The position numbers and the translations under genes were made by a program. Shown here piece after piece: positions 27,289 to 62,439 of a stretch of 64,000 nucleotides of DNA (positions are counted from its first letter, which is position 1; every line of letters starts with the position of its first letter). Origin of the DNA: Psammoneis japonica (Eukaryota); NCBI GenBank assembly GCA_008632985.1, contig QPGO01000107.1, forward strand, positions 124,001-188,000, in the 5' to 3' direction. Below the pieces are notes generated by a model. That model searched no databases, had not been told where the DNA came from, and saw only the letters and a list, made by a program, of their open reading frames with translations.

Positions 27289-27296
27289 CGCAATTG

Positions 27297-30292: not shown

Positions 30293-30351
30293 AGCCCAAT
30301 CGGTCCCACGCACGCTGCCGACATTCTCGCTCATGGCTAACCCTCTTGCGA

Positions 30352-35900: not shown

Positions 35901-38900
35901 AACATGCTGGTGTGTCATTCGTCTCAATGGAAAAATCTTCAACATCCACGATTTGGGACAATTTCATGCACGCCAAATTGCAGCCTTTTTGGCAAACATT
36001 TGGCCCATCATCTGTCCATCACATCATGGATTTTCATGACCCCTCAACCTTTTTCACCCCAACACAGCATGGCACAATGGTGCTGTCACACCGTCACAAT
36101 TTTGAGCACAATGGAAGGTGAGGCATTGGTTGCTGACAATTGCACTGGTCTTTTTTGATGCTCCAAAGGCTTGAAGAATGTGTCATTGGTGAACAATGCC
36201 CTGCCTTCTTTTGTCATGAAAATGCCATCTCTTTTTTGCCATGGTGGTTGCACCACATGTCAAGCATTGCGCAATCTTGCAAGCTGTGACAAGGTGTGCA
36301 CATCTCTGTGTGATTCAAGTGCTCGACATTTCATTTTCCAATTTTCTCAGAGTGTTGCAATCTCAACCGATTCCATGGCATTTGACACCCACTGACTCAC
36401 TTGGGCAGAAGTTTCACTCTCAACATTGGGTGGAACATCACCACATTCTTTGAAATCATCCTCTTCTTCAACCTCTTCTTCAGATGAGGACTCAGCTGCC
36501 AGCACAGTTGTCATGGTGAAGAACAGTGCTCTGCGCTTCAGCGTTGGAGGCAGAAATGAAATTCTCACACTGCACACAATTTCAGCACTGAAACATGCAC
36601 ACACAAAAAACAGCAAAAAATGCACAGGCCAACTCACATGCACAAAATGGGGTTGATGTGGTGGCCCTTTATGCCAGTCTGTTTCTTGAACTTGAGCCCA
36701 CATGACTGGCTGTCACCAATGCCTCCATCAGCTAAAATGGTCATTCTTTGTTGTCATTGCAGCAACAACTGGCAGACAGTCAAAGGAAGCAACCCTCCCA
36801 CCCACCCTGGGAGCCCACATGGCTGCCAGGATCCCAGCCAGTGATTGAGTCTGGAGCTTGAGCTTTGCAGATGGACCTCTGCCACCAACCAGTTTGGAGC
36901 TTGAGCCAGCAAGCTGTGTGGTTTGAATTGGCGACCCCCCACCCCCCATGACAAAAAACTTGTTGGTCAGCACAGGTGACATTGACATGTTCATTGCATG
37001 GCAGGTGCACTGCAACATGTGGTGTGTGTGGTGATTGCATCAGGCAGATGGGTGGGTGTTCACTGCCTGTTAACATCAGGGCATGCATGCATCATCTGTT
37101 GGGTCAGGCATGCTGTGGTGGATTTTGTGCATGGCTGTGGGTGCTCAACATTGCCAACTGTTGTTGCAAATCTGAAAAAATTGACAACAATGAACCCCAA
37201 AGACACACCAGCACCCACTGACAGTGTGGTGGCAGAGGGCACTGCCCATTGCCAGTGCATCTGATGCACCTGCCACTTCAGCAACAATGACATGGCTGTT
37301 GCTGCCGCACAGACAATGCATGTTGCAGCTGCCTCAGCCATGCAAAGGCACAGCCAAGGTCATTGCCCACAAGGATGGCCTCATTCTGCTTGTCCTGTGG
37401 AACCAAGTGAAGGAGTTTGGGGAACCAACCTTCTTCTAAAGCACAACTGTGCAATGGTCAAAAAGAGATGGAAAAAATGCAAAGTCTGGGGTTGCTGGCA
37501 ATGTCACTCCACATGTTGCGTGCAATCAAACAGGTGAAATTGGAGGAGTGGGGCAACCTGCTTCTGAATCACAACTGTGCAATGGCAGAAAGGAATGGGT
37601 GCAAGCATTTGGAAGCTCCTGCCATTCCAGTGTCTGTCAGTCAAAAAATGCATGTGAAACCAGGTGCACCCAGTGAGCCACCAAAGGACATGGTGTGTTG
37701 GTGCTGGTGCCATGAAGAGCATCAAGAATGACACACTGATGACAATGATGAGAAAATGAAGGGGGTAAAAAGGAGGCACCCACAAAGGGGCAGAGAAGCT
37801 CCTGAAGGCCCCCAGCCAGCACAACAGCCCAGCCCGTGTTGGCCTGAATGGGTGTGACTTAAAGTTTGTGGAAGATGCAGAAGGCAAGCTGCATTGATGG
37901 TGCCAGAATCATCTTCATTTGAGGAAGGCAAGGGCAAAACCTTCAGTGTCACAAGTGGGCACCCCAGAAAACTGAGTGAGGCATTTGATCAGAAGCAGAT
38001 GCCCCATCTTTGGGCACACATTGCAGCAAATCTTCAGCTGAGTTGGTGCATGTCATTGCTGTTGAAGGTTTGTTGTCTCACCACATGTTGCTCAAGCACA
38101 GCAAGGAGTCACAGAGGGGGCAAGGTGGTGGGCATCAGGGTCTTTTTGATGCAAACCCAGTGCACTTTGCTCAAGACCTGTGGTGGAACACTTGCTTTGA
38201 AGGTCTCAAAGAGCATGACACATTTTGCTTTTTGTGCTTTGTGGAGGTCATTGTGGCTGCCTCCCACCCTTTGAGAGCTTTGAAGTTGGCAGCTGAGTCA
38301 TTGGATTGGATCTTGATGTCAGCTGCCTGAGGAACAAGGGCAAAATCATTGGTGCACACCGGGTGCCACAAGTCCAGCACCACAGAGGAGCCCCCCAGCA
38401 GTGGTTTGTAGCCACAGTCAGATCAGCTCCATCCAGACAAGCAGCTGTTTGTTCCCTGCCTTTGAAGACAACAGCATTTTGATGCAGCATGTTAACACTT
38501 GCCCTCTGGAGTTGCTCTTTTGGGCCCAAACTTTGTTTTGGGGCTTTGAGTCTCAGCAACTTTCTTGGATGCCCCCAGTCCACCAAAAATCAAGACAAAG
38601 GAAGCCTTTTCTGCTTGAACAGTTTGACAGGAGCAATGATGAAGCTGGATTGTCAATGTCAGACAGAGGCACACAGCCCAAGCAAAATGGAACAAGCAAT
38701 CAAAGGAAACATGAAAAAACACGAGCACTGCAGGTCCTGTTGTGTTGGTCTGTTGATCGGCACAGGCTTGCTTTGGCACATGCAGTCTGTCCATCAGCAT
38801 GTCCAAGCTGTGGTGAAAAGTGCAGGCCTTTGGATCAGTTGAATTGGCAAAAGCACCAGGGCTTTGCCAGGCTGGCATTTGGCGAGTGCCTTCTGGAGGT

Positions 38901-39860
38901 CATTGGCAGCATGGTGCATGGGGGGCAGCATTTGATGTGTGCTGTCAGGTTGTTGGTGATGATGGGAGCAGCAGGTGCTTGCATGGTGGGTGGAGCTGTT
39001 TGACAAGTTCCACACCATCAGGAGCAAGGGATGCAGCAGGAAGGGAAGAAGCAACTCAAGTGCAGGTGGCAGAGAGGTTGTTGTTGACATCGGCAGCAAT
39101 TTGGGCGGAGTGAATGCAGGATGAGCTGTCAAAGTCAGGGGGCTCCTCAGACAGTGTCAGACACATCTGGGATGGGAACAGAATGTGACTCATCACAGAG
39201 GGTGCACATGGAGCCATTGTGGAAGAGAAAAAATGTTGTGTGATGGTTGTTGAAATCCAAATGGTGGAGTCCTTGGGGCTTGGGCAGAGGATGAGGGATT
39301 CAAAAGAAAGAGAAGCTTGAAAAAAGGTTCTGAAAAGATGTCTTCCAGGGTCAAGGTGGGTCATCGGCACAGTCAAAGGACTGGGGCCAGCAAATGGAGT
39401 CACCGAAGGGAAGCTGTCCATTCAGACAGCTCTTGGCATGGGCAGGATGATGCAATGAGTTGGATGTTGGTGGCCATGCCAGGTGCATGGTGGGTGTTGC
39501 AAATGTGAGTGTGCAGGCAGGTGTCTCAAAGGCATGTCTTTTTGGTGGTGCATGGACGGTGACGGCCTGGGTGCAGATTGTGTTGCTGGAAGAAAGAGTC
39601 GGGCATGGATCACAAGCTGCAATCTTTGTGCTCAAAAAAAAACAAATCAATTGTTTTAAGTGCTGTTGCACCTTTGCCCAGCAACACCGGCTCCGGCTGA
39701 CCCACACTTCCAGTGCACCCCCCTTGGAGGTGTGGCAGAAGTGCATGCAATTGGCCTGAATCAGCAACTCCCGGAGGAGAACGCCCAATGGAAACAACTG
39801 GCAATGGTGCATGTGCTGCATGTCACTGGCCTCTTGACTTCCTTGAGGCTTTCCTTGAGT
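33000..39860. repeat. Old TE/repeat debris, depleted of both TpA and CpG
   Basis: Near absence of TA and CG; no intact domain recognised other than the relic at 34786-35420. Confidence 0.5.
34786..35420 (-). pseudogene. Hypermutated relic of a Crinkler-type REase-fold domain
   Basis: ESNVQGLV...PDIW...VEVKKP...GQIFDHM, a PD-(D/E)xK pattern with GQxxxY changed to H. Confidence 0.55.
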
Positions 39861-42800
39861 CTGGGATCTGGGCTTGATCACAGAAATCCAATTTTGTGTG
39901 TGTGTTGCAGCAAAGGTCTCATGTTCTGCCACGGAATCAAGCAGAACATCTCAGTCTTTTGCCAAGTGTTCCTGACATTTGTTGCACACAGCTGTCAGTT
40001 CGGCCTCCACTTTGCATCTCTGAGAAGATTGTCTGGTTTCTACATCATGGCCGTGGACATGCTTGTTGTGCTCTTCCCCCACAATTCCCGCCATTGTCGC
40101 CAGACAAACGTTCCCATCTGTGCTGTCCAGTTTGGTGGTTGTTTGTTCTCCTCCTGGCACTGACAAAGGATCCCAGAATCTTGCAGATGTCCAGATTGAT
40201 TGACACTCCACAGAGAGGAATGCCTTCTGCTGAACACTTGCCCCCACCCCACGTTGGATTGAGCTTGCCACAGAACTCTGCATCTGCAATCAATGTCTTC
40301 AAGATGCGCCATCTTGCTGTAAACCATGCTTCAATGGACTGCAACAAGAAATCCCGAAGGGTTGGCATGTTGTCGATTCGGTCACAATGCCTCCTTAGAG
40401 ACCTTGTGGAAACTTTCTGTGCCATGGTTTGTCGCACGGACAGCGGAGCATGTGGTCCCCATCTTCCATGGGATGCTCACAATGAAGACACTGGTGAGGT
40501 CTTGCCGAATTGCACCGGCGGATGATCTCATTAGTGAGGAGAAGATCGTGAACCAGCTTGGCTGTTCCAATGTGTTGTTTGGAATGACGTTTTATGAGGA
40601 AGGCATGAGCATCCCAATCCATCAGCTCCGTCACCTCTGGACTCCACTGACTGCATTCAACAATGCGCTGCAGCAGCTGTGGGGTGGTGGCCACATGTCT
40701 GACATGACGTTCACAACCTGCGGTCAACGTGCCATCTGGAAGACTCAAACATGAGTGACAGTTTGGAAAGGGCAGCACCATTGTGGCATCCCAAGGGTGC
40801 TGGCCTTGGCATGCCCCTGCCAATCGATCCGCTCGGACGTTTGCTCTGGCATTGAGGGGCAGGGCATGAATTGGAGCATGCCAATCTTGATGGCCCTTCA
40901 GCCATTTGACTGGCAGTGGCTGTGTGAAAGAGCCAGTTACAAATGTCCTCTCCATCTCAAGCCGAGTGTGCAGTGTCTCATCAATGACATCCCAGTCAGG
41001 AGACATGCTGTTGGCTCCAGGATGTCTGACATGAAAATCTCTTGTTTCATCCAATTGTTCCTCTGAGGTTGGAGCTGGAAGGATTATGGTGAGTTGATCA
41101 AGACAAGACACCAAAGCTTTGTTGTCACAGTGTGATTCCATCTCTGGAAGCTGTTCCACTCTGCAATGTTCCATGAACCGGCAAATGAATTGAAGGAGGG
41201 ACAAAATGCCACAAGCCTCTGCCCGGCATGATGACGGTCTTCTGCCAAAGACTGGTCCTGCACAATCCACCAGTGGTGCACCATCCAGGGTGATTGTCCA
41301 CCCAAAGGCAGCTCCATCTTTGACGGATCCATCACTGCCAGCTGTTAACTTTGATGACACAAAACATTGGATTGGCATTTGCGGTGGTGAGTGAAAGTCC
41401 AGTTGGTCAAACAACTTCTCTTTCCACTGGCCCAGCAAGTGCAGTTTGTCTTGGAACATGTCTGGGATCCTGGAGCTCAGGAAGTCTGATGATGAAGTGT
41501 GGGGCAGAGCAAATGCCCATCAACCATCTTCTGTTGTTGACAGTTCTGCCAGAAAAGACTCTTCAGACGGGGCCGGAACTGTCTCCAACTCTGTGACAGA
41601 GTTGGTCCTCATGCCGTTCACTTGAAAAATTTGACATCCGTTGGTTGATCTAACACACAGTTGCTCTTCAGAAGGAGAGAAGTACGCTGAGGCTTGCATG
41701 CACATCTGAGACGGAGGCACTGACCAATTGCCAAGAGGTTCCTTGAGAGTGTGTGATGCCGAATGACACAGAGAGGCACAGAACTTGTGCCACATGGACC
41801 AGGCTCTTGTTCCTGGTTTTTGCTGTTCAACGTTGTTCAAGGAGCTGGAGTTGCTCTGAAGCAACGGGTCTCCTGCTGTTTTTGTAGCGTCCAATGTCAA
41901 GCCATCTGCAAGAGCAATGTCAGACACTGACAACACCTGAACATGCAGTCGACAGCAATTCATCCATCTGACTTCTCTGTGAGAGAAGAGTTGGGACTGG
42001 AGCACAATGTCCATGATGCACTGATTGTCATCACATTGAAGGGGAAGAATGCCGGAATGAGTCAAATGTGCTTTTCCTTGAATTCTGTGTGGAGAAAAAC
42101 ATGAACGGAGGCAAACCAACAAGATTCCACATGCGGGAGTTCTGCATCTGCATCCCACAGAAAGCTTTCTCTGGTTTCTGAGTTCAGTTGGATCCATGAC
42201 ACTGCAATGTGCAGCAGCTTGTGCAGTTGATCCTCTCCCAGATTTAATTTGGTGACTCCTCTGGAATGCTTCAGTGACATTTGCAGTTGAGCAACGCCTT
42301 GCTCTGCATCCAATGATCAAAAACCTCTGCCTCCCAGGGCTTGGGGACCGCACAAGATGAATCTTTTTGCACTTTGATTGCACCCACATTTGGCAAAAAC
42401 AACTCGCATGGCTTTCTGTTGAACTGCAAGTGACTCTTTGGGAAGAAAGGTTGAGTTTGGAAAAATGCAGGTCATCAAAGAAAGGCAGCAAGCGTGGTGG
42501 CATCTCCATGTTTCAATGTGATTGAAGTGACAGGATCTAAGGAAGAGGGCCGCAGCATCACTCTTGTGTTGGAGTTTCTTCAACTGGGTCTTCTGGGAAC
42601 TGATTGGAGCCATGCAGTGTCCAAGAGTTTTGTGCAGTGTGTTGTGGCACATGTGCTTGCATGTCACCAGTGTGAACAATGGTTGGATGTGCAATCGCCC
42701 TTTTGTGTGCACATGACAGGCCATGAGCATCGATTTGCTTGCCTCTGTGGCACAGCCCCGAGCCCAGAGAACAGTGGTCGCAGGTTCAACACCTTGATTC

Positions 42801-44113: not shown

Positions 44114-46032
44114 GAATGACTCCGCTGGGCAAATCCCAGCAAGGTGCGCAGCCAGTGTCTGGCGTGATGCAAGGCATCCATGTTAACTTTGACCATGTGT
44201 GAATCCACTCCGTCACTCCGGGAACAAAGTCCAATGATTGCAGGGACATTCTTGTCAAAGCATGAGGTGAAATCATCGTCGCTTGTCAGTGTCATCTTTC
44301 TGGAAGCTCGGGACATTTCTGGCATCAGGTTTTCAAGAAACACAGGAGTCTGGGCAGAGAGGAAAGAGTGGCAGCCATAAATTCCTGGGTCACACATCCA
44401 GTGGTGCTCCATGTGTTGTGCCAGTTCTCGCCACTTTGCGCTCGTGATGATTTGAAAATCTGCTTTGCAGATGTGAATCACGTGCAGGTGGTGCACTTTG
44501 TTGTTGCCTGGCTCTTTGAATGTCATCACATTGATGATGTCTTTCCAGCGGTCATGTGAATGTCCCCGTTTCAATGTGCAGTTAATGAGGTGCAGTTGAA
44601 TCATGAGTGACGTTTGCTGAACCTGGTCAAGGAGTGATCCATTTGGGGTCGGATTGCCAGTGCAAAGCAGCAGAACATTCTTGGATTGTCGTGGGAAGGA
44701 GAAAGGAAGAAGAGATTTTACATTTCTCTTGAAGAACCAAAGGCACCACATCCTTGCGATTGCAGAACATTGATGTCATTTGGGACAATGCAAAAACTTG
44801 TTTCCAAAGATCGGCAAGTTTGATGGACCATTCTGGCTCTTTGTAACGTTTGCATTGCTTGGCTGCTGCCAGGGAGAGTTGGGTCATGTCACGGTTGAGT
44901 TGCCAAGCAAGGCTGTGGTCAGGAGTGTCAGATTGAAACAAGGCTGTTGCACGATCCAGAATGTTTCTGCTGGCGGTCAAGGGATCCATTGCTTCAAGAC
45001 ACGTGGTGACATGTTCAGGAGACAATGCTTGGAGATCACTGAACTTTGGTCTTGGTGAATCAACTGACGGACTGCCAAACAGGGCAACTGTGTCAAAATC
45101 CATGAAATGGGCATGGTGATCCAAAGACATGCAACAGCTGAATGGTTCACATCCACAGTGCCGCACCACTGCTGAAGCACCGGGGGTCGCTGGCACACAA
45201 TCCAAACGTCTGGAGCCTCACACACAGGCAGAAAAATCAAGGTCTTCATGCTTGTGATGCATGGTGTCCGACATGTTGAATCGTTGGGCCACAGATGCGA
45301 GAGTGTCGGAATTGTGACGGAAGTCTGTGTTAAAATTGCCTGCCAGAATCACTTCCCGATTTGGCTCATCTCAAAAGTGCTCAAGAATGCGTGTCAGATC
45401 GGTGCAGAACGCTCACCGGGGATCTGGATTTGCTTGGCCTTGTTGATGGAGAAGTGCCCCTTGTTGAGCACATGCAGTTGTTTTGCCTGCAATGGACAAC
45501 GAGTTAGAACACACTCTGCAACACGAAACAAACATGACCTGTTGGCCGTGCTTTCCGTCAAAGATCTGCATGGACCAGCGACCCAATGGATCTTTGCATT
45601 GTGCTCGACACCTTGCGGACAGAGAGTTGCAAGATGTGACAGCGGTGCCTGTTGAACTGACCAGTTGATGGCGGCAAATGGGAATCTTGTGAAGAATCCT
45701 CCGCTCTCGTCACACTCGTCCTGGTTGCTTGTGCGGCTGTGGTTTGCCCAGAAGATTGCTCAACACAAACTTCGTTTGCTTGTTAGATGTTTGTTTTGAC
45801 AGACACTTCCCAGTGCCGATCGACATAGATGACAAACCAGATGATTCACTCTAAAGAGTGAGAAAGTTGTTGTTGCATGAACGACAGATCGATGACGAAG
45901 AAGACACAGTCATCGGAATGCACACGTCATCGGATTGTACACGCATGGAGCCTCACATGTCTTTCACTTCAATTCGTGCATGTTCGGGTTACTTTCACCC
46001 CGCATTCACATGCTCCAACACACTCCTGCCGC

Positions 46033-47463
46033 TCACATCGATTGTTCTTGAACGTCGTAAGCGGGAACAGCGCCCATTGGAACGACATCGTATCCTGTCA
46101 CATCGGGAACACCTGTCCCTTCCACACTCACGTCGGTTTCGGTGCTGCAACACCACTGCGTCTGATTGGGATTCAAAAAATCGAGCATCCCATTGAATGA
46201 ATCGGTGATGCCTTCGACACAGCGCACGAATTGGGTTGCATGGTCGCGTCGGATTCGTTCCTTCACGACATTGTTGCTGAAGCCACCTTTGTGCTTGGTC
46301 TCCAGGTTCACAATGACGTCCTTGATCCATCCATGGATTGCGTCTGGACGCAACTCAAAAAAAGTTGCTTGGCTGACAAGCCACAGGCTTCCGCGATCGG
46401 ACAGCCAGCTGGCATTGAGGCTGAAGAACATTGCCAGCTTGAATCCATCGCATGCTGTTCCATTGCCATCAATGGCCAATGAGTGCCGGACGAGATTGTC
46501 CATGTTGCGATTCCGCTGACGTGATTCAAAAGGATCCACATTCAAATCCACAAGTCCTCCAACTTCGCCGTGGGCACCAACCCCACACAACGGCAAACCA
46601 CAGGTTCGCGACAAGCCAAGTCGGTCAATGTCGCTGCGGTCTAGTGCAAGCTTGAGCATGTTGCCTCGCGATCGCCATTGGTTGGATCGCCTTGTGTTGA
46701 GAGCTTGCGGTCTGCCGGCCAAGCACTGCCAGCAATCTCGAGCAGCATGTGCCGTCTGGCTCTTGTTCCTGATCTCGAGTGGTCTCTGTTCCATGTCGTC
46801 ATGGAGAGAGAACATCGGTGTTGTAGCGGGCACACAGTGCCGCATGGGAGGTGACCATTTCTTGCACAGTTCAAAGACTGACTCCATGAGACCAAAATGT
46901 TGTCTCCACAGTTTCACAAACACCTCCTCGAATTGCTGACGGTGAGTCATGAATTGCTCTTCCCAGCAAATCATGTGATGGTCTAGCGCATCCATCGCTA
47001 AGACTGGCTCTTCAGTGGGTAGATCGCCATCCACCATTTCTACGTTTGCGTTGTGACTCAGTGCAAACGCTCTTGTCCAAAGGGAGAGTTGGTCCCTTCC
47101 TCGTTTGTGCGCTCTTGCAGCACGTTCTTGGAGAACTTCCTCCTTTCTTCCGTTCCATAAATCCACAGGAAGACTGTCGGCACGCAGGTCGCCCATTCTG
47201 ACAAACTCATCCTTGATGCTTTCATCAATTGCGCAGGCACCTGCCACCTCTAAAAAACAGTTGTTCGGCCAACGATTCAATGCTGTGCCGGTTGTGTCGT
47301 GAGTGACATGTTCTTGTGGCCTTTTCTCATTGCACAGGTGCCGCGTGGCCCTTTCTTGGTGTGTCACTCGGTTGACAAGGTCTCCGACATGTTCGTTCGG
47401 TGCCGCTTCTAACACAGCGCTCAGGATGGTGTGATTGATGTCTGCCTCCTCGTCGTCATTCAT
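46033..47463 (-). CDS. Additional 476-aa ORF of unknown function between pol and the 3' LTR
   Basis: ATG-initiated, same strand as pol, globular-looking composition, ends just before the PPT; hypermutated (2 Tyr). Confidence 0.6.
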   Translation of the reverse strand: MNDDEEADINHTILSAVLEAAPNEHVGDLVNRVTHQERATRHLCNEKRPQEHVTHDTTGTALNRWPNNCFLEVAGACAIDESIKDEFVRMGDLRADSLPVDLWNGRKEEVLQERAARAHKRGRDQLSLWTRAFALSHNANVEMVDGDLPTEEPVLAMDALDHHMICWEEQFMTHRQQFEEVFVKLWRQHFGLMESVFELCKKWSPPMRHCVPATTPMFSLHDDMEQRPLEIRNKSQTAHAARDCWQCLAGRPQALNTRRSNQWRSRGNMLKLALDRSDIDRLGLSRTCGLPLCGVGAHGEVGGLVDLNVDPFESRQRNRNMDNLVRHSLAIDGNGTACDGFKLAMFFSLNASWLSDRGSLWLVSQATFFELRPDAIHGWIKDVIVNLETKHKGGFSNNVVKERIRRDHATQFVRCVEGITDSFNGMLDFLNPNQTQWCCSTETDVSVEGTGVPDVTGYDVVPMGAVPAYDVQEQSM

Positions 47464-47558
47464 TGTCGATCGTTGTTGCCATGCAAAACATGATTCGCTC
47501 CGGAGAAGATCGCACGATCGTCATTCTCCGGGTGTCAGGGATCTTTCACCCACACGCG

Positions 47559-49247
47559 TCAGAATTCTCGTCTGACGTCACAAACAGGAATCTTGCCTGT
47601 TGCTGTCAGGACTTGACGTCCCATGACGGCTCGTTTAAATTTTAAAAACTTTTCACCTTGCAATGGCTTGGTCATGAAATCTCCAATCATCGCGTCGGCA
47701 GGACAGCACTCGACAGTTGGGTTGCCCTTCTCGACTTGGTCGCACACGAAGAAGCATCGTATGTTCAGCACTCTGGAGCGCTTGCCTGCGCTTCGACGAC
47801 CGTTTGTCTCTAACAGTGTCGCACTTTTGTTGTCTTGGCATGGGATGTTCTTGTCGATGGGACATCCTTGGTGCTCCACAAACAGCTTTGTCCATGGGAT
47901 CATGGTCATTGCATCGTCGACACCCACCAGCTCAGCTTCTGTGCTGCTTCGGGTGTTCAATTTCTGTCTTCGTGACACAGCTTGTGTCGCTCCATCGCCC
48001 ATTGTCATCAATGCTCCGGTGTGGCTCTTGAAATCTGGATGCACCGCGAAGGATGCATCGACGTGCCACTTTGTTGCTCGGAGATCTTTTGCGCTCAGGG
48101 CAGCCACCTCATTGCGCATTCGATTCAGATGCTTGAGGTGCCGGATGAGCTTCGCCCAGTCTTTGTTGGCAGGCTCTCTTGTCCGTGTGCACAGTGCTGA
48201 TGTCGTCGGATGGACGTCCATGCATCCGCGTTTGGATGCGAACAGTCCTTTCGCCACCCACGCATGAAATGTCTGTGCTTTCTCTGGCGGCAATTTTGTT
48301 CCACCCACCTCAAATGGGTTCTCCCCTGCTGGTGTCACAGCAAAATCTGTGCTCTTGATCTTTTCCGGAAATTCGTCAATCACAGATCCGACATGCTTTC
48401 TCATGTCTGCCATCACCTTTCCTTTGTCGGTGAAGTCCAGGATCACACCGAGGCAGTCATGCTTTGGACCCCTCGTCACCACGACTTCGCCGTGACTCCC
48501 GCACTTCCTGTTCAACCAGTTGAGGAACTTGTCGTTAACTTTTGGGTTGACGTGGCTTGACAGTAAGTCATCCACATGAAATTGCACTGTGCGCTGCTTT
48601 CCGTTGACAATTCGGTTGGCAATGCACGGGTCACATGGGTTGAACTTGAACCCTGCCCTTTCCAAGTCTTTGCGGAACTTCTTGCACCACAGCAATGCGG
48701 CAACAAGCATGCCGTAGATTGCTCTGACGACTTGGACGTAAAGGACTCTCTTTCCTTTTTCTAGGACCACGTGCGGTCCATGCAAGTTCGGATCAATGCT
48801 TGCCAGCATGTCCACAAGTGAACCTGCGATCTTCATCATGATTCGTTCCTCACCTTCCTTGGGTTCTGGAACTTCTGTTTGAATGAATGCGTTGGGGACA
48901 TCAGCGCTCACAATGTCGCGTCCCTCGTCTGCATCAATCACCGCAGTCATCAGGATTCCTTCCAATGATGCTGTCGGACTGGCTGACTCGTCTTTGTCTG
49001 GCCATTCTCTGGATGGTTTCCCGTTGTGTGCCATCCGCCCTTTGATGCGACCATCGCGTTTCTCTGCAAGGAACATCAGGGCTGTCATCGCTTTCTTCCT
49101 CTCGGTCGGAGTCATGCTTTTCACTGGCACCGGTTGGAAGCAAACTCGGTCGTGCAGTTGTTTCATTTCTTTCTGTGAGGCGTCATGTCCTTGCTGTCCA
49201 AACAGTTTGAGACCTTTGTGCAGCAGATGTTGCTGACCGAACGACAT
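47559..49247 (-). pseudogene. Copia RT-RNase H: open frame but hypermutated
   Basis: DVPNAF, AIYGML, FHVDD, VDASFAVH, SSTEAE, QDNKS, DFMTKPLQG; only 2 Tyr in 562 aa. Confidence 0.92.
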
Positions 49248-52200
49248 CTCTTTTCCTGCTCATGCTCTGTCATTGTGTTCGCACATGAAAAATGCAGTGA
49301 CCAGTCCTTCTTCACAGTCGCAGTCTGTGTCGTCTTGTGGGTTGGGACTCCTGTTGGTCATGATGTTGTGGCAATGCTCGAGCTTTCTTGGCTCTTGTTC
49401 TTCTTCTTGGGTTCTCGCCACTCCTGCAAAGCAGACTTTCTTTGTCGTGTCACTTGTCTTTGCTTTTGCATTGTAGCTGCGTCCTGATCTTGTGGTTCGG
49501 CTTGTTGTTTCTGCCGATTCTCCTGGTTGTTTCGTCTCTTCTTGGCATTGATTTGGACTGGTGGATCCATCTTCTGCGAGGATCTCATTGGTTTCTTCAT
49601 GTTCTTCGTCAGATTCACATTCGTTGTTGCAATCGTTGTCATCATCGTTGTCGCTGTCGTCATCGTTGTCGTTGTCGTTGTCGCTGTTGTTGTCACTGTC
49701 GCTGTCGCTGTCGTCCACTCCTGCAGTCCAATCAGTGTCACGAAGATTGTCGCCATGTTTGCCGGTGAACTTGAAGTCCTTGATGCCTTGACGAGAGGCC
49801 ATGCGTTCAACCGCCAGAACGTGGGCATCGGTTGAAGGGACTGCAGTGCATTTGCAGGGGTTAAGAAGTTTCCCTGTGTGGAGATTCACAGTGCAGTGTC
49901 CCCCTTTGTCCGTGTCGCGACGGGGGCGCAGGTGGATGCTGTCGATCCCATGTGTTTCCATTGCATTCGTGGAGGAATTCTTGACATGTGAAAGAACAAA
50001 CTCACTGAAAGTGAAAGCAAAATGCTTGTTGCAGTCGAGATTCCTGCGTTGTAAGATGGCATGTGGACTGTGAACGTCCGAGATGCCCTCCTTTTGCGGA
50101 TGCACACTCAACATCACAGTGTTCTTGATTGCCGCGTGCTCACACATGAGCTCAGGCATTGCCTTGCATGGCACGTGTTGAACGGCAGCTCTTGTCCATT
50201 CCTCAATGGTTTGGACACTGCGCTCGACTTCAGGCACGTGGTCCTTGGTGTTGGCACTGACAAGTTCAATGTCCATGCCATCCGCAACGTCGGAAAGCAT
50301 CTCCTTAAATTCAGGATCACACTCAATGAAGTCAATCTTGAATGAAGCCTTGTTGCATTGGCGCAGTGTGGCATCCAGTGCGTCACACACGTGAACGTGC
50401 TTCTTGGACTTTAAACGCACGCTTGCTCGACATTTAATCGTCTTGTCAATGGAATGGAGCAGCTTGACTCCACAAACCTCCATGATGTCAATGCATGGAG
50501 CAATGCCGTCCTTCTGTCTCTCACAAAGTTCTGGCGGCAAGGAAATGATGTCGTTCCTCTCATGGGAACGGTGGGCGCGTTTGGATTTTCCTTTCACAGC
50601 GTCCACAGGTGGACCCCAAATGGCCACCATGCGATCGGCGTCTTCGGGCACAATGTCAACATTCTTGACTTGGTTTGATCGCAGGAATCACTTGCAATCC
50701 CGCAAACTGGGGATGCCAGCCTCGCAGCAGAATCGGAGAGCCTCTTTTGCCCTCGCCATCTTGCGTTTTGTGTGCCCTTTTGAGTTTTCTTTGGCAGTCG
50801 GGATCACTGTCCCAGCAACACTGCCTGGCCCACGCTTCTTGCGCTTTGATTGCTTGGATCCTGTCACACTCATGTTTGCATGTTGCTCTGCTTCTTGGAG
50901 CTCCTTCACATGATCTAGGAATCCCTCACTCGGTGCAAACGTGTGTGGGCCAATGCTGTTTGCCTTGAACACCACGACTTGCTTCCCCGACTTCTCACCC
51001 AGCAAGCAGAATTCGTCGGCCACTCGCGTGTCATGGGTCACGTCGCACTTTTTCTTGATGTCTCGTAAACTGAGGATGTTCGCAATTGCATTCTTTGTCC
51101 CGAGTTTCATGTCACCCCATCCTGGCATGGCACAGTCTTTATCCAGCGTGTCCACTCCTGTGTTCGTTGATGGGTCGATCTTGACCTTTGCTGGTCTGAT
51201 GTTGTGCACGAGGTTCCTGCTTGCTGCCATGCCAAGGGTGGATCCATTGTCGAGGATCAATTCATCTGGCTCGATGTTTGATGAGCTCTGGTTCATGCTG
51301 ACCTGTGTGCTCTCGTTCGTCACTTGCAAATGTGATGAGTGCCAAGACCTTCCATTGCCATTGGACCGCGACGACCTGACGCTGCTGATTGAATCGACGC
51401 TTGTGTCGTCGTCTTCTGAACTGTTTTCGCCAGTTCGAGCCTGTGCGTGGCTCTGCCCTGGCAGTTCGGGCTTCTTCTTGGTGTTCTTGAACCACTTGTC
51501 ACAGGGGACATCGTTGCGGTGTTTGCACTTGTTGGACTTGTGCCCCCCCACACCACAGCAATCACAGACAATTGCCTTGTCTTGTGCAGTCTGTTGTGCA
51601 TGACTCTGGTCCTTCTCATTTTTCTTGTCTTGATCGTTTCTTTTCAATTCGTTTCACTTCCCGCTTCTTTTTCGCGGATCGTTGTCCTTGGGATGATTCA
51701 ACAACACGTCCATTGCCGAATCCAAATCCTTCGGATGCGTGTCATTTCCGAGACTGCAGTCTTGCACCAGACTCTTCTCAAGACTTTTGCAACAGCAATC
51801 GTCACTGTTCTGAATGAACAGATGCGTCGTCCACATCTCACACGCGTCCTTCTTGAGTTCATCCTTTTGTGTCCTGGTTCCCATGGTGCATTCCTTGGTG
51901 TTCTCGACGAAACCATCAAGGAACCTGTCTCCCATTCCTTCTTTGGCAGCATCGCGTTGATTCTTGAATCGCGACAAGTGGTCATTTAGTGACTCATGTT
52001 CTTGGTGTCTGACGTCAAGTGAGGTGGATGAGGCCTCAGTGAACGTGTGGAATGGGTGACGACCTCTCATGGAGTCGCATGTCAGGGACTGCATCAGCTT
52101 CAACAACTTGATCGGGTCATCCCCAATCGTGTCAAAACTGGGATCTGCCTCTGCCCGCTGTCTCATTGGCTTGGAGCAGCAATCGTCTGAGATCATTGCG

Positions 52201-54799
52201 GCAGCCTTTGTCTTGTTCTTCTCAAACTCTGAGAGCTTTCCACGGCACTCACCTGGTTCCGCCATGTGCCCACAGATCAACTGTCTGTTCTCGAGCTCTC
52301 TGTCTGCATCGTCTTTGGCTGCAGATGCCTTCAGCACTGGTTTCTTGCCACTGAAATCCTTGCAGTTCATGTCTTCCAGTGAATGGGCTGAGTGCACGCC
52401 CTGTTCGCACTCCTTCTGGATGCAATGCACTGGCTTTGTCTTGACTTGCTCGAATGTTGCGTTGCGAGAGTTGCTGTTCATGGAGGACGAATGGAATTTC
52501 ATCTCCGTGGTGCAGTTCTTGCCGTTGAATGCCTTCTTCTTCAAGTTGGAAGATTTGTGGCCTTTGCTGCTGTTGCCGCGACCATTGTTGCGGTCTTTTC
52601 CTTTTCTGTGCGGGTCACTCGACCCTCTGTCACTCATTGCAACAGGCTGCTGATTGTCTCCTTTTGGACTGTAGACTTTCCATTTAATGAGCACTCCTTG
52701 CTTGTGACTCTTTAGAGTGAATTTTGAACCGACGAGTTGATGGCGGTAAACGGGAATCTTGTGAAGAATCCTCTGCTCTTGTTGTGCTCGTCCTGGTTGC
52801 TTGCACGGCTGTGGTTTGCCTGGAAGATTGCTCAACACAAACTTCATTCACTTGTCAGACATTTGTTTTAACAGACACTTCCCAGCACCGATCGACACAG
52901 ATGACAAACCAGATGATTCACTCCAAAGAGTGAGAAAGTTGTTGTTGCGTGAACGACAGATCGATGACAAAGAAGACACAGTCATCGGAATGTGCACGTC
53001 ATCGGGTTGTACACGTGTGGAGCCTCACATGTCTTTCACTTCAATTCACATGCATTCGGGTTACTTTCACCCCGCGTTCACATGCTCCAACAGTGCCACC
53101 TGGTTCACAAGGAGTGGAGAAGGGAGTCTTTGACAACAAACAGGTGATTCTGCCATGACACAAGCCTCTTGTTGCCGCTGCCGTGCAGCTGTGCCGAACT
53201 TGGAATTGTGCAGTGTCTGAACATGTCTCAGAGACGCCTGTAACATCAGCTTGAATTTCCATGGCCACTTGTGCACAATCATTGATGTCGCCACCATGGT
53301 GATCAAATGAACAGCCATTGGTGTTGAACGCACACAATCTTGTGTGTCCAGACAATTTGGGGAGCAGTGGATCACCAACAGGGTCATTCGAAGACAATCT
53401 GGTGCAGTCAATGGCAGTGGAGGGAGGGGCGCGACTTCTTCCTGACAACAACTGGGTCCACTGCTGTGCAGCGGGATCAACTGCAGACGAAGGGGCATCA
53501 CCCCTCATTCGGAGGCCGTGCTTCCTTGAAGGAAGGCTTTTGAAGACTTGCGTCTGCATCATGCAGTGGAGGCAGGTGAGACAACTGGGCCTGCCTCAAA
53601 GAAAATCTGAGTCATCCGTGTCTGTCACAGTTGCATCCCTGGGAGGATGATGAGAGGAGGGGGCTGCAGGGACCAACGCAGCTTGCTTCTTGCGCTGAGG
53701 AGAGACTGGTGTGTTTGGAACCACAGATGCAAACGTCTCTTGAATCATCGTTTGCAGCTGGGCTGTGAGAGTGGTTTGTAATTGTGTGGCCACTGCTTGC
53801 TGTGACTGGGTGGACAGCGCCGCAATTGATTCTTGGTGCTTCCCTTCTAGGGCTGCAAAATGTTTTTCTTGTTCTTGTTGGTTTTGACAAACAAGCTGTT
53901 GTAATTTGGCGATTTCCGCAGACTGGTTCATCACATCCGACATGGGGATGGCACCAGGGATGACTGCTCCAGGCTCATTCTGCAACACCTGGGAATGCGT
54001 GGGAAAACCTGCACTCACTCCGACACTTTTTGGGACTGGAGGACCTTTGGATTCTGTTGATTGAGGAGGAGCGATGGAAGCTGCTGGAGAAATGTCTGAA
54101 ATGTCTAGAGACGCCCAACTCTGAATGCTTGTGGAAGAGATGGATTGAACCCTGTCTGACATGTCATCACCAATGCCAGGGATCATGGGTTTGGGTTGGG
54201 CATCCGGGATGCCTGCCTCTGCTGCAATGGCTTCAAACCACTCTGGAAGATGTTCTGCAATGCAGTGCTTGGCTTGATGGAACAAATCCTTGTCCACAAG
54301 AATGTCGCACCTCTGGACAATGGATGGTTTCTTCAATGGGACCACGTCCAGGACTCCTGGCACCTCTTTAATTGCACCTGTCAGGCAAAAATAGTGGGCT
54401 TCAATGTGATGCAATGCCGGTGTGATGTGGGTCTTGGCACTCGTTTTATGTTGTTTGTGGGCTGCTTTGTCAAAAGCTTCTGGTTGCAAATGACGCCAGC
54501 GGGACAAGACCAACGCAAGAGGATGTTCTTTCAACACCTCCAATGAGGCGTGAATCACATCTTTTGCTTGATCATGGGGAGTTTTGATGGCATGGAAATT
54601 AGTCCGAAGAGATTGATCTGCCAGTGATGAAGCCGACTGAACTGCCAACCTGAAAGGCAATTTTGAGCGGCTGCGTTGAGGGAGAAGGGCCATTGACAAT
54701 TTTTGAGCCACATCTTTGGGGCAATGCTTTGGGAGTGGGTCAACAAGTGGAGCCACTTGTGCCAAATCAACGATGGTCTCGTCCCAGTGGTGGTGGTGC

Positions 54800-57777
54800 A
54801 TGTAGATGCCGCAGGAGCTGATGCAGGGGCTTGCTGCAAGAATGATGGAACTTGCAAGATGATAAGGCCAGCAAGGTGTAACGAGTTGGGTCGCCATTAC
54901 GTTGGAGATGGCGTCCTATGTCACCCCGAAATTTGCGACTCTGGGACAGAATGCTGCCCAACAGGCGACGAGCCGTGCTGCGGCCTCAGCTTTCTTGAAT
55001 GTCGCGATCTTGCCTTTTCCTTCGAGATGGGCTTCCAGCAGGATGTAACAGGGGACACAACGTGGAAGGAGAGAGAGGAAAACTTGATTGTTCCCATTAA
55101 TGAGGTTCTCGATGAGTCTGTCAGAAGCGAGAACACGGGTGAATTCATTGCAACCACCGGTGCGATCACGTTCAGGTTGAGGATTGACGATGTTATCAAG
55201 ACGTCCGACGAAATCATCGATGAAATCTCATTGGACATGTCTACGGATGCAGAGACCTTGGAGACAATTTCCGAGTATGACATGAAGTTGACTCTTTTCA
55301 ACGGCTCTGTGGGAGCTGATCGCTTCGTAGGCCTTGCGTTGTCCACCATCAATCCAAAGATGAACAAATTTGAAGGCTCTCTCATTTTTTTTTGGAAAAC
55401 CTCAAGACGACGACAAGGATGTTTCTCGCCATTTGCAACTCGTAGTCAGCTGCTCAGATGCATTTGATGAAGCTAAGGCTGCGTACAGATGCCCAGTTCC
55501 GGGCGACCTCCCTATCATTGACTATCGTTGTCGACGTGACCTGATTTTTGCTTGTGAAACGGCCGTTGCGGCAGCAACTGGTGAATTAGAGAGAGCAATT
55601 GAACAGGCAAGGCTGGTTAAAGAAGTGGCAGAGGCAGCGTTGACAGCAAGGAAGATTAATAAATACGTTGTCGTCGCTGCAAATTGCATACCAACTGCAA
55701 TTGGCTTCTTCGCTTATCTCGCATGCGTAGCAGTGGGCGCCGCTACAACCGCGGCGATTGACATTGCTATATCGGTTGCTATAGATAGAGCTTTTCAAGG
55801 TGCAAAGCTCTTGGCCATAGCAAATTATGATGCTATCGTTCGAGCGGCGATCGATTACATCAAACGAAGGGCGCGAACGTGCTTTCACTGTTGCAGAGAC
55901 GATCCGGATGATTGCTGTCCCGAATGTATGGAAACCGAGACTTGCTGTGAAGGAGCTTGCATTGCACCCGAAGAGTGCTGCCCGTTGTGCTTTAGCAGTG
56001 ACGAATGCTGCGAGGGATCTTGTGTGCCTAAAGATTGCTGTGGCAGCAATGATCCTTGTTGCGGTAGTCAAGATCCATGTTGTCGGGAGCCGAACGATTG
56101 GGACGAGGGCGGGAGTATGGGCGATCCTCATATAAGAACCTTTGACAATGTGGGTTTTTCTTGTCAAGGAAAGGGGGAATTCATTCTCTTTCAATCCTTG
56201 GCATCTGGTGCCGAGGTTCATGGTCGCTTCGAGAAGATACAGCACCGCTTTTTATCCCTAACTAAGGGCTTTGCCGCCATTGGAGGACCCACGAGTCCAA
56301 CTGTGGAGCTCTCTATTCCAAACAAAGATCAAAATGCCTTAGAGTTGCGCATTAACGGTGTATTGACCGATCCACGCAGTGGATACAACGATGCCAAAAT
56401 CGCAGTGACAGTAACCAGCAACAAATTCACTGTGTTTTTCAAGACAATCAAGATGTCGGTTGTCGCTCTACACATGTTGGAAAGGCCCCAGCACCTTAAT
56501 GTGTTTGTACGACTTCCCAGAGTGTTCCGAGGAGAAGAGATTATTGGGTTGTTCGGCTCTCCTGACGACAACCCTTCAAACGACTGGATTGCAGCCAACG
56601 GAACCGTTCTTCCCTTGCCAACCTCTGATCTACGTAAGCGGGCGGGCTACGAATACTGCGTATCAGAGTGGTGCATTCAAGATTCTTCTAGGTCACTGTT
56701 TTCCCACAGTAAACCCTATGACTTCTCCTTCTTCTACGGATGCGATGAGCCATACAAGCGTGACAAGTTTCGAGCCCTAGTGTCACCAGCGCTGCAAACG
56801 CTGTGTGGTACAGATGAAGCCTGTCTCATTGATGGAACAGCGCTCGGACTTGCTGGTGCTCAGAGCCTTCTAGAAACGGAAGCTGGCCTCAGCAGCTCGT
56901 CATCTTCCGCTCGGTTTCGAGCAGACCCAGCTGCTATCGTGGTACGAGCTTCCTTCAACATCGCCTTGGTTGTAAACCTAAAGTCGTCCGCCAATGATGT
57001 CAGGGATGTTGAAGCGTTCTCAGTTTATCGAGTCGACTCAGATAGTCGTGAGGTTGGACGCACAGCCATTGTCACCTTGCAGTTGGAGCGGACACTTCTG
57101 AAGGTGATTTCATCTTCTCTAACATTCTTGCAATTGAATCGGACACCCCAGGTGAATCCTTTAGCTTTCAGGCTGTCCCAATTATTGGAGGAGTAGAGAA
57201 TACTGCTTCGCCATTGGTGTTTACGGCATTGAACGCGGTACGCTCGTTTTCACTCAACTCTGGAATTGGGAGACCTATCTACCCAAATGAATCCCCTTTT
57301 CCAAAAGGATTCATCACGGTAGATTCAATCAAAGGTTTAGTTCTCGTCCTTCAGTATTCGTGGCCAGCCGATAAGACTGACTTGGACACCGCAGTACAGT
57401 TTCTTGATGTCACTGTTGGACAGTCTTGTGGTTCATCCTCTCCGTACATCAAATTCAGCGGAGACCGTAAAGCAGAAGGTATTGAGGTGGCTCGTATCCT
57501 TCTCGGCGAGTCCAACGAGGATGGCCAATGGAAGAAAGTCAAGGTTGAATATTTTGCCGGTTGGTTCGGTTCTACGAACCAAGGGCCGGCTTCAATTACG
57601 GCTTATACCGAAAGAAACCTGAAAGACGGTAGTACTGAAGTGGGCAATAACGCAGTGTCGCTTCCCATCAATCCAGGGGCTCAAGGTGGTTGCACGTCCG
57701 CAAATGTTGGTACCGCATTCGTTAACATTGGAAAGAATGGCACCGTCCGAATTGAGCTCGTATCATTTGCAAGCTGA
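54800..57777 (+). pseudogene. Cys-rich von Willebrand factor type D domain protein, 5'-disrupted and frameshifted
   Basis: GACC..DGTC...GDG..C module, Cys-rich repeats, VWD GDPHIRTFD...CQGKGEF...GLFGSPD. Frameshifts at the T9 run 55385-55393 and at ~57080. No native start before the LINE junction. Confidence 0.7.
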
Positions 57778-58491
57778 CAAGGTTGTGTTTAACGCAACGT
57801 GAGATGCAAAAGATATGCCGCCCCTTCGTGCATTGCAATTTGTCTTCAACCATCTGTGTATTTTGTATGAACTTTCACATGTTTCATTTCGTTGGTTCTT
57901 GGATTCGAAGAATTGAGCAAAAAAAAAATGCCGCCTAGAAATCAACCAGCATGTGCATTGATACATCATATTCTTCCCAATCGATAATACACCGACTCGG
58001 GATCTTGGTTCTTGATGAAGGCGTCTTCCTGGGCCAAGCTCTCGATGAATGTTCTTTTAATCTTTTACACATGCTAATAGCACCTTTTGCATACGACTGA
58101 CTCCCATTCACGTAAGGTATGTGACACTGCGTGCACTGATCCTGGAAAGTAATGCTCTACTAGGTGTTCTGAGTTGCGACGCATCAATCCGCTCACAGCA
58201 AGAGCTTTGCGGTATCTACTGCTGCGGTTCTTTTCATCATCATGGTCAGGTCGCGTTGCGTAGCAGAAAAAAAGTCTGATGGATGGACATGGATTCGATT
58301 CTGCAAGCAGCAGACCCACAGATCATTCTGATCCGTTGACTGCCTAACCAAGAACCACTAATTTAGGCCCTACGCCGGATGTGACACCATTTTATATCCT
58401 AACTTGGCTCTTGGTAGTAGCTAGCTCTAGAGTCTACTTCTCACTGCATTCTGTCGCATAAAAAAACATCATGAATCTATGGACGCATTAG

Positions 58492-59898
58492 TCAGTTTGA
58501 AGTTGAACCCGAGAATTCCTTTACAATGCAATCGGTGCCACCCGCATAAATAATACCATTCTTGCCGTAGGTAAGACACAGCCCCTTTTCCTCCTTTTCA
58601 TGTGCTCTCACACTGAAGAGGGGCAATGATGATCGGATATCCCAAATCTTGATTGCACCGTCATGGCTAGTAGATGCCAAAACGTAAGGATTCGTTGGAG
58701 ACCACTTGACACCGGATATCCACGCCTTGTGTCGGGGTTTCAATGTAGTATCTGTGGTGATACTACTACTTGCTTCACCAGTACTTTTGCCCACACGCAC
58801 ATCCCAAAGTCGAACGGTGCAGTCCGGATGTCCTGTTGCAACCACTTGGGAGTGTCGCGACGTATCCATGCATGACACAACGCGAGATCCGTTCAGTGTC
58901 AGAAGGCAATCTTGCCCTTCCATGTCCCAAACCTTTATGCTATGATCCCAACTCGAAGTTACTAGACTATTGGAGGAAATCCATGATACGGCACTAATGT
59001 TGGAGGAATGAGCTTGCAACACAGCCTTTGGAGCCACGGTGGGTGTGGCTACCTTGGTTTTTCGTTCCGTGCTGGCAGTTTTCGTTTGCTTCCTACTGGG
59101 TTCCTCTTGAGTAACGTTGTCTGCTTGAACATTTTTATAGTCCCAAAGGCAAAGTCCACCGTCCCAATCGCCACTCGACATGAGATTACCTTCCTTTTGC
59201 AAATCAACACAGTTTATCGAGCTGCTGTGACCATCCGTGTATTCGGCGTGAGGACTCATCTCTGAGTCCGCAAACGAGTGCGTAACGAGACTATGGTCTA
59301 GCGATCCCGTAGCAATCGTCAATACCTCGCTCGTATCATCATGTGCAATCGCCAGGCACTTTATGGGACCCGAATGAGCTGTCGCAGTAGCCAAGCATTC
59401 CAACGCCGCCGTGTCGTTGTTCGTTTTAAAGAGCGAAATGGCACCGCTGTAGTTCCCACTCACTAAATAGCCGCTATTGTATTCCAAGCCAGATATCCAA
59501 TCGGGTTGAGGGTCGCTCTCACCCTGATGTTTGGGTGCTGTTTCGGCGGGAAAATAGGTGATTTTTACCGTCTGTTCCAAACTCATGCCGTGTCGTCGTG
59601 CTGCGGTTTCGACTCCGGTTCTCAACAACTTGTTGGAAATCAAAAAGTCAAAGGGAATCACATCATCCTCGTCATCTTCTACACGATCCAACAAGTGATT
59701 AATGACGGCCGACAGGCCCTTGCGACCTACACCCGAAGGCACGGCAATCGGTTCCGATGGGACACGAAGCGATTCATCGGATATCGATGGATCCAATTCG
59801 AATGAAATTCTTACTTGCTCGCCTTCGTTTTCTTCGTTTGAAGAGTCATCACTTTTGTCGTTCATCGAACGATCATCCTCCTCCTTCAAAGCCGCCAT
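58492..59898 (-). CDS. WDR12: Ribosome biogenesis protein WDR12/YTM1
   Basis: N-terminal NLE-like domain (IAVP...LSAVINHLL...PFDFLI...LLRT) followed by WD40 repeats. Start uncertain. Confidence 0.9.
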   Translation of the reverse strand: MAALKEEDDRSMNDKSDDSSNEENEGEQVRISFELDPSISDESLRVPSEPIAVPSGVGRKGLSAVINHLLDRVEDDEDDVIPFDFLISNKLLRTGVETAARRHGMSLEQTVKITYFPAETAPKHQGESDPQPDWISGLEYNSGYLVSGNYSGAISLFKTNNDTAALECLATATAHSGPIKCLAIAHDDTSEVLTIATGSLDHSLVTHSFADSEMSPHAEYTDGHSSSINCVDLQKEGNLMSSGDWDGGLCLWDYKNVQADNVTQEEPSRKQTKTASTERKTKVATPTVAPKAVLQAHSSNISAVSWISSNSLVTSSWDHSIKVWDMEGQDCLLTLNGSRVVSCMDTSRHSQVVATGHPDCTVRLWDVRVGKSTGEASSSITTDTTLKPRHKAWISGVKWSPTNPYVLASTSHDGAIKIWDIRSSLPLFSVRAHEKEEKGLCLTYGKNGIIYAGGTDCIVKEFSGSTSN

Positions 59899-60112
59899 GG
59901 TGCTTTCAAGTTGTATTTTCAGCTTGTGGTCGCAAGTGTTGGTCGATGGTCGAGTCGTCGGAACAAAAAGTGAGCTCGGTTCCATGGTGGCCCATTGGGT
60001 TATGAGATCCCGACAGCAAAGAGACCCGGAAAGATTGCTATTATTTTCGAAATTTCGGTGTTCGGTGTTCGGCACTCCACAATGTTGTGTGGCCGCTGTT
60101 ATTTTCGACACA

Positions 60113-62347: not shown

Positions 62348-62439
62348 CAGTGGCACTTTGTTGTGTAGCAAGTATCAGTCAGACTTGCACCAGAATGACA
62401 CCAAAAGCAATTTGATAGACTACACTTATACAACATTCA

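Follow-up and report, generated by a model that had tools for sequence, protein, structure and literature searches.

Evidence for a TpA-directed transition process acting after integration on the transposons and satellites of a diatom-like genome

How do the two long terminal repeats (LTRs) of one retrotransposon, both copied from a single cDNA template in reverse transcription, come to differ mostly by TG in one LTR and CA in the other? The question is raised by a retrotransposon, here called element A, at 45650-53092 of a 64-kb window of Psammoneis japonica DNA (contig QPGO01000107.1, positions 124,001 to 188,000); the window is the whole stretch of DNA that was analyzed, and all landscape results below come from that one window. 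The explanation that we favor, with a probability of about 0.8, is a TpA-specific mutator that makes A:T to G:C changes at the DNA level, acts on the repeat or silenced compartment and is superimposed on CpG decay. After integration, TpA would be changed to TpG or CpA by an A:T to G:C transition on either strand, throughout the transposon and satellite blocks, with the gene islands spared. About 87-93% of the TpA sites in each copy of element A would have been converted, and each LTR would have been changed independently, such that an original TA would now often be TG in one LTR and CA in the other. Decay of CpG to TpG or CpA would have proceeded alongside at a lower level, affecting about 26% of CpGs per copy.

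Element A is one Ty1/copia-type LTR retrotransposon on the minus strand, with the following parts:

45645-45649, unstranded: left copy of the target-site duplication GTGCC, by direct reading of the sequence, the same 5-mer as at 53093-53097
45650-46020, minus strand: LTR of 371 bp, the 3' LTR in element orientation; the plus strand reads TGTTG...CAACA
46021-52721, minus strand: internal region of the copia-type element, with a gag-pol frame in which nearly all Tyr codons have become Cys or His
52722-53092, minus strand: LTR of 371 bp, the 5' LTR in element orientation
53093-53097, unstranded: right copy of the target-site duplication GTGCC

The LTRs have TG..CA ends, except that the right LTR starts with TT rather than TG (52722-52723), and a purine-rich tract adjoins the 3' LTR. 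Two contigs of run X1, the sole public sequencing run found to contain this stretch (no RNA run was listed for it) and possibly the source sample of the window, connect 45644 straight to 53093 with five bases common to both sides; this joint is the target site, still empty, in a different copy or allele of the flanking DNA. Because the target-site duplication, the TG..CA ends and the empty-site contigs agree, the LTR pair can be assigned to one insertion. The Ty1/copia assignment follows from full-length copia homologs: 847 long database homologs were found at E <= 1e-10, the top one at E = 7e-227 and 63% identity, their alignment covers the polyprotein, and PF07727 is present in all 120 of the 120 homologs among the matches listed. 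The only Pfam domain detected in element A itself is a RVT_2 match of 29.2 bits, under the 31.6-bit cutoff, a low score that fits the mutational load; the gag-pol frame also contains three in-frame TGA stops within its first 1700 codons. The family has many copies, with 952 contigs of run X1 aligned to the stretch. A coding microsatellite with a 12/18-nt period (49609-49715) encodes an Asp/Ser/Asn-rich run (DSDSDSDNNSDNDNDNDDD...) that sits between the integrase-side and reverse-transcriptase-side parts of the polyprotein.

The ungapped alignment of the two LTRs has 41 mismatches in 371 positions, of which 39 are transitions. A gapped aligner omitted a four-column stretch and returned 34/367, and the ungapped value is the count to use. 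The differences are of four types:

TG in one LTR and CA in the other: 12 sites, 24 positions
TA versus CA or TG: 5 sites, 5 positions
CG versus TG or CA: 9 sites, 9 positions
Other: 3 sites, 3 positions

Forty of the 41 mismatches lie within pyrimidine-purine (YpR) dinucleotides, which span 193 of the 371 positions (binomial P = 9e-11). In 20000 trials with 41 randomly placed transitions, reciprocal pairs averaged 0.86 and numbered seven at most, compared with the 12 observed. The original prediction, made from the DNA letters alone, had given the exact coordinates of the element and had described LTRs differing mostly by reciprocal TG/CA or TA states; all six pairs of strings quoted for it are found in the alignment. 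It had said the same of the LTRs of a short element resembling a terminal-repeat retrotransposon in miniature (TRIM), and here too the quoted strings are present, at 17044 and 17381: the 115-bp pair has 10 mismatches, all 10 of them transitions and two TG/CA doubles among them. The mismatch pattern is the same in seven repeat pairs of the window, six of about 91-93% identity and one of 84.5%; their combined differences are 47 TG/CA doubles, 71 sites of the CG-vs-TG/CA type and 19 of the TA-vs-TG/CA type, along with 34 transversions and a further 46 transitions of other kinds. The repeats other than element A on which the comparisons draw are:

14179-25239, minus strand: copia-type element B, with LTRs at 14179-14457 and 24961-25239 (TGACAG...CTGTCA)
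21496-24232, unstranded: tandem duplication of about 1.37 kb inside element B, its copies 91.8% identical
17044-17495, plus strand: TRIM-like element of 452 bp inside element B, with 115-bp direct repeats at 17044-17158 and 17381-17495
25240-26077, plus strand: array of a 51-bp satellite, with a sister array at 13444-14178

A TG/CA reciprocal takes two changes from either CG or TA, and for this reason an outgroup is needed to establish direction. Columns with Tyr (codon TAY) in at least 80% of 40 full-length homologs were therefore examined. At the 27 such columns of element A there are 14 Cys (TGY), nine His (CAY), two Tyr and two other residues, and a tblastn version of the test gave 15 Cys, nine His and two Tyr out of 28. 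Element B is unrelated to element A and serves as an independent replicate; the element A homologs cover 0 of its codons, and a separate set of 40 homologs was used for it. At its 33 conserved-Tyr sites there are 22 Cys, seven His, no Tyr, three Phe and one Leu. Residue content changes in the same manner, from 3.7% Tyr, 1.2% Cys and 2.5% His in 69 homologs to 0.31%, 3.65% and 3.96%, respectively, in element A, where the combined gain of Cys and His about equals the loss of Tyr. Among 119 changed conserved columns of element A, a single TA to TG/CA step explains 35 and a single CG to TG/CA step 11, while A to G or T to C changes outside TpA number 10, near the background given by the six or seven other C to T or G to A changes (one is ambiguous). 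Conserved Arg is retained at 26 of 36 positions in element A, and none of its conserved His, Gln, Cys or Trp residues has become Arg; because Arg is mostly kept and not gained, TG and CA have not been converted onward to CG, and the loss of CpG is modest.

Other copies of the family in run X1 provide a second outgroup. At the 40 best-supported of 954 variant places, with adjacent rows read as pairs, other copies have TA at seven where this copy has TG (45978, 46276, 47719 and 52739) or CA (48446, 50235 and 51834); 45977-45978 is a reciprocal site of the LTR pair. At another seven of the 40 places other copies have CG and this copy CA or TG, and at four this copy has CG and the others CA or TG. 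As far as the homologs and the other copies tell, the direction of change is from TA to TG or CA. This is the direction originally predicted, and the outgroups agree with it; the CpG share, evident in the nine CG-vs-TG/CA sites and absent from that prediction, is also real.

The relative size of the two contributions was estimated with a two-class model. With 13 shared CG and nine single CG differences, the model gives a CpG loss of about 0.26 per copy and about 23 ancestral CpGs, from which about 0.8 CG-derived reciprocals are expected, compared with 12 observed. About 11 of the 12 would thus be TA-derived and, together with the five single TA differences and two shared TA, they would imply about 29 ancestral TpA and a per-copy TpA conversion of about 0.87 in the LTRs, in agreement with the conserved Tyr codons (25/27 = 0.93). 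The mismatched positions of the LTR pair would then comprise about 27 derived from TpA, about 11 from CpG and three of other origin. Decay of CpG to TpG or CpA would, by this model, be a second and weaker contributor that accounts for about a quarter of the LTR mismatches.

Since the insertion is single and its LTRs share one template, the TA-type differences between them would have arisen in the chromosome, and the process appears from these comparisons to act on DNA already resident in the genome. The original prediction of conversion after integration on both strands is supported by these TA-type differences within one insertion bounded by a target-site duplication and by the conserved Tyr codons of elements A and B, where both products occur (37 sense-strand TG and 16 CA), a moderate bias rather than a strict strand polarity. 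Nor do most mismatches between the LTRs derive from CpG, by the model split given above. Strand-coherent tracts of the kind left by hyperediting or by repeat-induced point mutation (RIP) were not detected (24 runs vs 23.2 in permutations, P = 0.70). Other TA-type coding changes are about equally divided between the strands, with five or six TG versus six CA.

The composition of the window shows the same change on a larger scale. TpA-depleted blocks are found at:

33060-54800, unstranded: block containing element A
1-3500 and about 10200-29650: other TpA-depleted blocks

Over the whole window TpA observed/expected is 0.24; in 1-kb intervals it ranges from 0.02 to 0.19 in the repeat blocks, which make up 66% of the window, and from 0.40 to 0.81 in the gene islands. 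Over their 42,300 bp the repeat blocks have only 213 TpA, or 0.50% of dinucleotides, compared with 3.95% in the islands, and TG and CA each go from 7.24% in the islands to 10.24% in the repeat blocks. Total YpR is near constant (24.6% vs 23.9%), as it should be if transitions do no more than turn one YpR dinucleotide into another. In five metagenomic relatives TpA observed/expected is 0.66-0.71 and the GC content 0.39-0.45; the GC content of element A is 0.51. The edges of the depleted blocks, such as those near 29660 and 33060, are sharp to within about 100-200 bp, which suggests a chromatin or element boundary, and sequence between elements in the repeat blocks is TpA-depleted as well.

Conversion is not uniform across sequence contexts. 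The neighbor effect was measured as the residual TpA in repeat blocks relative to gene islands, by flanking bases:

ATAT: 0.00 (0 sites left)
ATAC / GTAT: 0.02
ATAG / CTAT: 0.03
GTAC: 0.05
CTAG and ATAA / TTAT: 0.10
CTAC / GTAG: 0.13
GTAA / TTAC: 0.16
CTAA / TTAG: 0.32
TTAA: 0.62

The slow xTAA/TTAx contexts account for four of the five TA-vs-CA/TG sites of the LTR pair. An effect of the -2 neighbor is inseparable from one of the +1 neighbor in these residuals because the contexts are complementary. Simple models of either kind were tried on the Tyr codons and rejected, since neither fits TAT with nine Cys and eight His and TAC with 28 Cys and eight His.

Several observations weigh against a TpA-specific process acting on both strands of resident DNA. 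Over the seven repeat pairs, CG-vs-TG/CA sites exceed TA-vs-TG/CA sites by 71 to 19, and nine of the 41 LTR mismatches of element A are of the CG type. Only three of the 40 variant places are in LTRs, and most ancestral LTR states are taken from the two-class model. Position 45976 is part of a CG in one LTR and of a CA in the other LTR and in 86% of other-copy depth, and it may be an A to G change outside TpA or a CpG loss shared by other copies. The strands are unequal at the conserved Tyr codons (37 TG : 16 CA on the sense strand for A and B combined; binomial P = 0.005); in element A alone the ratio is 15 TG : 9 CA (P = 0.31), and a moderate TG bias could come from neighboring bases or from transcription. 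Finally, ectopic conversion between differently mutated copies may be a source of LTR differences.

A process of this kind has been described in the chlorarachniophyte Bigelowiella natans. According to the main text of a preprint (Mettrop et al., bioRxiv 10.64898/2026.01.13.699255, 2026), 231 of 302 nuclear single-nucleotide mutations in mutation-accumulation lines fell in two integrated viral regions, and 230 of the 231 were A to G or T to C, all at TpA, giving TpG or CpA. That text puts the rate at about 6e-7, compared with 3.5e-10 elsewhere, reports activity in some lines only and finds TpA-poor coding sequences enriched in reverse-transcriptase and DDE domains. The likeness to element A, as far as that text describes the B. 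natans case, is in the conversion of TpA to TpG or CpA and almost nothing else, on both strands of resident DNA, and in its confinement to foreign or transposon-derived stretches with the rest of the genome normal. Here, conserved Tyr has become Cys or His at 23 of 27 columns in element A and 29 of 33 in element B, with a separate CpG C to T component coexisting; the loss is restricted to TpA (0.50% vs 3.95%, with YpR constant); and the host islands with NAP, MPP6, WDR12, PPR and Nop genes keep TpA observed/expected of 0.40-0.81 in this one window.

The two cases differ in several respects. The host here, to judge from the best matches of its WDR12/YTM1 gene, is a diatom-like stramenopile, the targets are LTR retrotransposons and a satellite, and the evidence is comparative, from LTR pairs and outgroups, rather than experimental. 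The depletion is much deeper, near saturation, with TpA at 0.02-0.19 over 66% of the window compared with the 0.45 given in the preprint for the B. natans giant-virus region. The neighbor effect, in which TTAA is largely spared and ATAT fully converted, has no stated counterpart in the main text of the preprint, where the words "context", "trinucleotide" and "flanking" do not occur. No diatom report of TpA to TpG/CpA hypermutation was returned by full-text literature searches, whose coverage left out most subscription journals. The evidence supports a process of the kind already shown experimentally in B. natans, here in a diatom-like host and on retrotransposons and a satellite. If it holds genome-wide, this would be a second major algal lineage with transposon-directed hypermutation of a polarity opposite to that of RIP, and it bears on how widespread the B. 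natans type of system is.

The mismatch spectrum, its direction, the involvement of both strands, the restriction to repeat blocks and the timing after insertion are what the data show; the chemistry is inferred. Our first choice, held with slightly less than even confidence, is an enzyme that deaminates adenine to hypoxanthine at the T-A steps of DNA, the product being read as G. RNA adenosine deaminases prefer a 5' U/T, and the tRNA adenosine deaminases always meet U33-A34. The same DNA-level process could alternatively work through thymine: the T of TpA would be oxidized or otherwise modified, in the manner of 5-hydroxymethyluracil, pair with G and be replaced by C. We consider this unlikely, but it is the main alternative. 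TpA is self-complementary, and A to G and T to C on opposite strands are consequently indistinguishable from sequence. Thymine hydroxylation in dinoflagellate DNA prefers TpA; however, we know of no such thymine modification in diatoms. The B. natans authors, for their part, favor adenine deamination in the main text of their preprint and propose an ADAT2 homolog as the candidate enzyme (bioRxiv 10.64898/2026.01.13.699255).

A second alternative retains adenine deamination and moves it to RNA. Element RNA or cDNA would have been edited from A to I before integration, and the LTRs would differ through later ectopic conversion with edited copies. In its favor, adenine is later read as guanine and a U or T is preferred directly 5', a preference of ADARs that the Discussion of the B. 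natans preprint also states (bioRxiv 10.64898/2026.01.13.699255). The family has many copies, some TG states occur in both LTRs where other copies read TA, as at 52739, and there is the sense-strand excess of A to G at Tyr codons noted above. In contrast, the known natural substrates of ADAR and ADAT enzymes are RNA, and edits made before integration would pass to both LTRs, whereas 29 mismatched positions of this pair are of the TA type. The same spectrum is also seen between the halves of the tandem duplication in element B, which has 20 TG/CA doubles, and between units of the 51-bp satellite, neither of which was made by reverse transcription. Whole blocks are depleted, including the sequence between elements, up to the sharp edges described above. 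Editing before integration is very unlikely to be the source of the pattern.

A third alternative invokes only the deamination of methylated CpG, every TG/CA reciprocal going back to a CG of which one LTR lost the C and the other the G. The products of 5-methylcytosine deamination are indeed TpG and CpA, and the process is present here, as about 11 of the 41 LTR mismatches by the model and as Arg changed to Cys, His, Gln, Trp or stop. CG-vs-TG/CA sites are common (nine in the element A LTR pair, 71 in the seven pairs), conserved Arg has changed to one of these at 18 of 51 positions in element B, and between 33 and 45 kb CpG observed/expected is down to 0.05-0.4. CpG decay is nevertheless unable to remove TpA or to make Cys and His from Tyr codons, and it predicts about 0.8 reciprocal pairs where 12 are observed; in element A its extent is about 0.26 per copy compared with about 0.9 for TpA. 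The metagenomic copia relative L005, with CpG observed/expected of 0.24 and TpA of 0.71, has lost CpG and kept TpA, and hence CpG decay does not yield the TpA-poor picture. The YpR columns of the satellite, aligned over 22 units, fall into a TA class without CG and a CG class: one column has 10 TG, 10 CA and no TA or CG, another nine TA, 12 TG, one CA and no CG, and a third is almost invariant with 20 TG, one CA and no CG, while four other columns retain 6-10 CG beside TG and CA. CpG deamination as the sole process is contradicted by these data, and we give it next to no credence.

No more plausible is a sequencing or assembly artifact in which a base modification at TpA in repeats is misread by the assembly platform. 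In its favor, neither the assembly nor run X1 has a recorded platform or library. Against this, X1 contigs contain 68% of the 31-mers sampled from 45000-54000, with word depths in the tens to hundreds, some X1 pieces match with 0 differences, the TG or CA outcome is fixed per site and differs between copies, and the stops and other substitutions represent real decay.

RIP raises TpA/ApT and lowers (CpA+TpG)/(ApC+GpT). Although RIP is likewise a DNA-level and post-integration process of one-dinucleotide transitions in repeated or mobile DNA, only transitions and on both strands, which inflates divergence and breaks reading frames, the fungal process is refuted as the cause by the direction of change, since in ascomycetes it makes C to T changes mainly at CpA, creates TpA and lowers GC, whereas here A to G changes destroy TpA and raise GC (to 0.51, compared with 0.39-0.45 in relatives), the repeats have TpA/ApT of 0.09-0.10 and (CpA+TpG)/(ApC+GpT) of 1.49-1.68, and no strand-coherent runs were found.

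We therefore return to the TpA-specific mutator and its consequences for dating. LTR divergence over all aligned sites of the gapped alignment is 34/367 (Jukes-Cantor 0.099), whereas outside YpR it is 1/178 (0.0056), and the overestimation of age that had been predicted for LTR dating amounts to 17.5-fold for the element A pair and to 1.9- to 9.4-fold for five other pairs. Relative to the non-YpR background, which is a single mismatch with a 95% interval of 0.014%-3.1%, point estimates put the rate at about 730-fold for TpA and about 106-fold for CpG. Seven of the eight repeat pairs in the window (>=110 bp, several families, satellite arrays excluded) have 85.7-91.5% identity, and this clustering at about 91% whatever the age fits saturation of TpA and not a shared age. 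Ages taken from LTR divergence are thus inflated in this genome. Transposon proteins poor in Tyr drop below profile thresholds and will be missed by repeat annotation, GC rises in the repeat compartments, and the loss of TAA and TAG creates long spurious reading frames. In the repeat blocks, stop-to-stop frames of 200-570 codons are found on both strands and in several frames; because TAA and TAG are almost gone there, the length of an open reading frame is no guide to genes. LTR pairs, for their part, offer a cheap and experiment-free measure of the process and its sequence context.

More speculatively, and with doubts that outweigh our confidence, diatoms and chlorarachniophytes might share a genome defense aimed at chromatin, a "reverse RIP" in which a DNA adenine deaminase removes TpA on both strands of transposons, satellites and integrated viruses, with its own neighbor rule, and saturates while neutral sites change by well under 1%. 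If so, such a shared system would alter the GC content of large algal genomes, the ages read from their repeats and the annotation of their transposons.

The repeats around element A have some features of their own. Element B was inserted within the 51-bp satellite array, which carries on at both sides; its flanking 5-mers, CCGAC and CTGAC, are one CpG transition apart, at a CG-class satellite column. Both halves of the duplication at 21496-24232 match the N-terminal (gag) part of homolog P0241. The TRIM-like element lies between segments of the element B pol region (tblastn matches stop at 16543 and start again at 17475) and looks like a nested insertion in element B; a third match to its terminus, at 42203, was rejected, as homology did not extend beyond about 13 bases. 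The oldest-looking block, 33001-40000, has CpG observed/expected of 0.05-0.39, TpA of 0.02-0.07 and TG/CA of up to 2.2, and its long open frames have no protein-family match. Two direct repeats of 212 bp (27077-27288 and 34446-34656), which share 91% identity, flank a TpA-normal island at about 29660-33060. The island contains an 870-codon open frame on the plus strand (30214-32826) with no Pfam match, and it may represent either a host gene with a solo repeat on each side or a mobile element that has not been mutated.

The genes and frames of the host gene islands are:

3945-4862: NAP gene
8426-9091, minus strand: MPP6 gene
55364-57196: VWD-like frame
58492-60141, minus strand: WDR12/YTM1 gene
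59699-62347: PPR frames
63217-63999, minus strand: Nop-domain gene, which runs off the end of the window

In these islands, 3945-9091 and 55364-63999, most genes are long single frames, and the named best matches of the WDR12/YTM1 gene are from diatoms only, at 41-51% identity.

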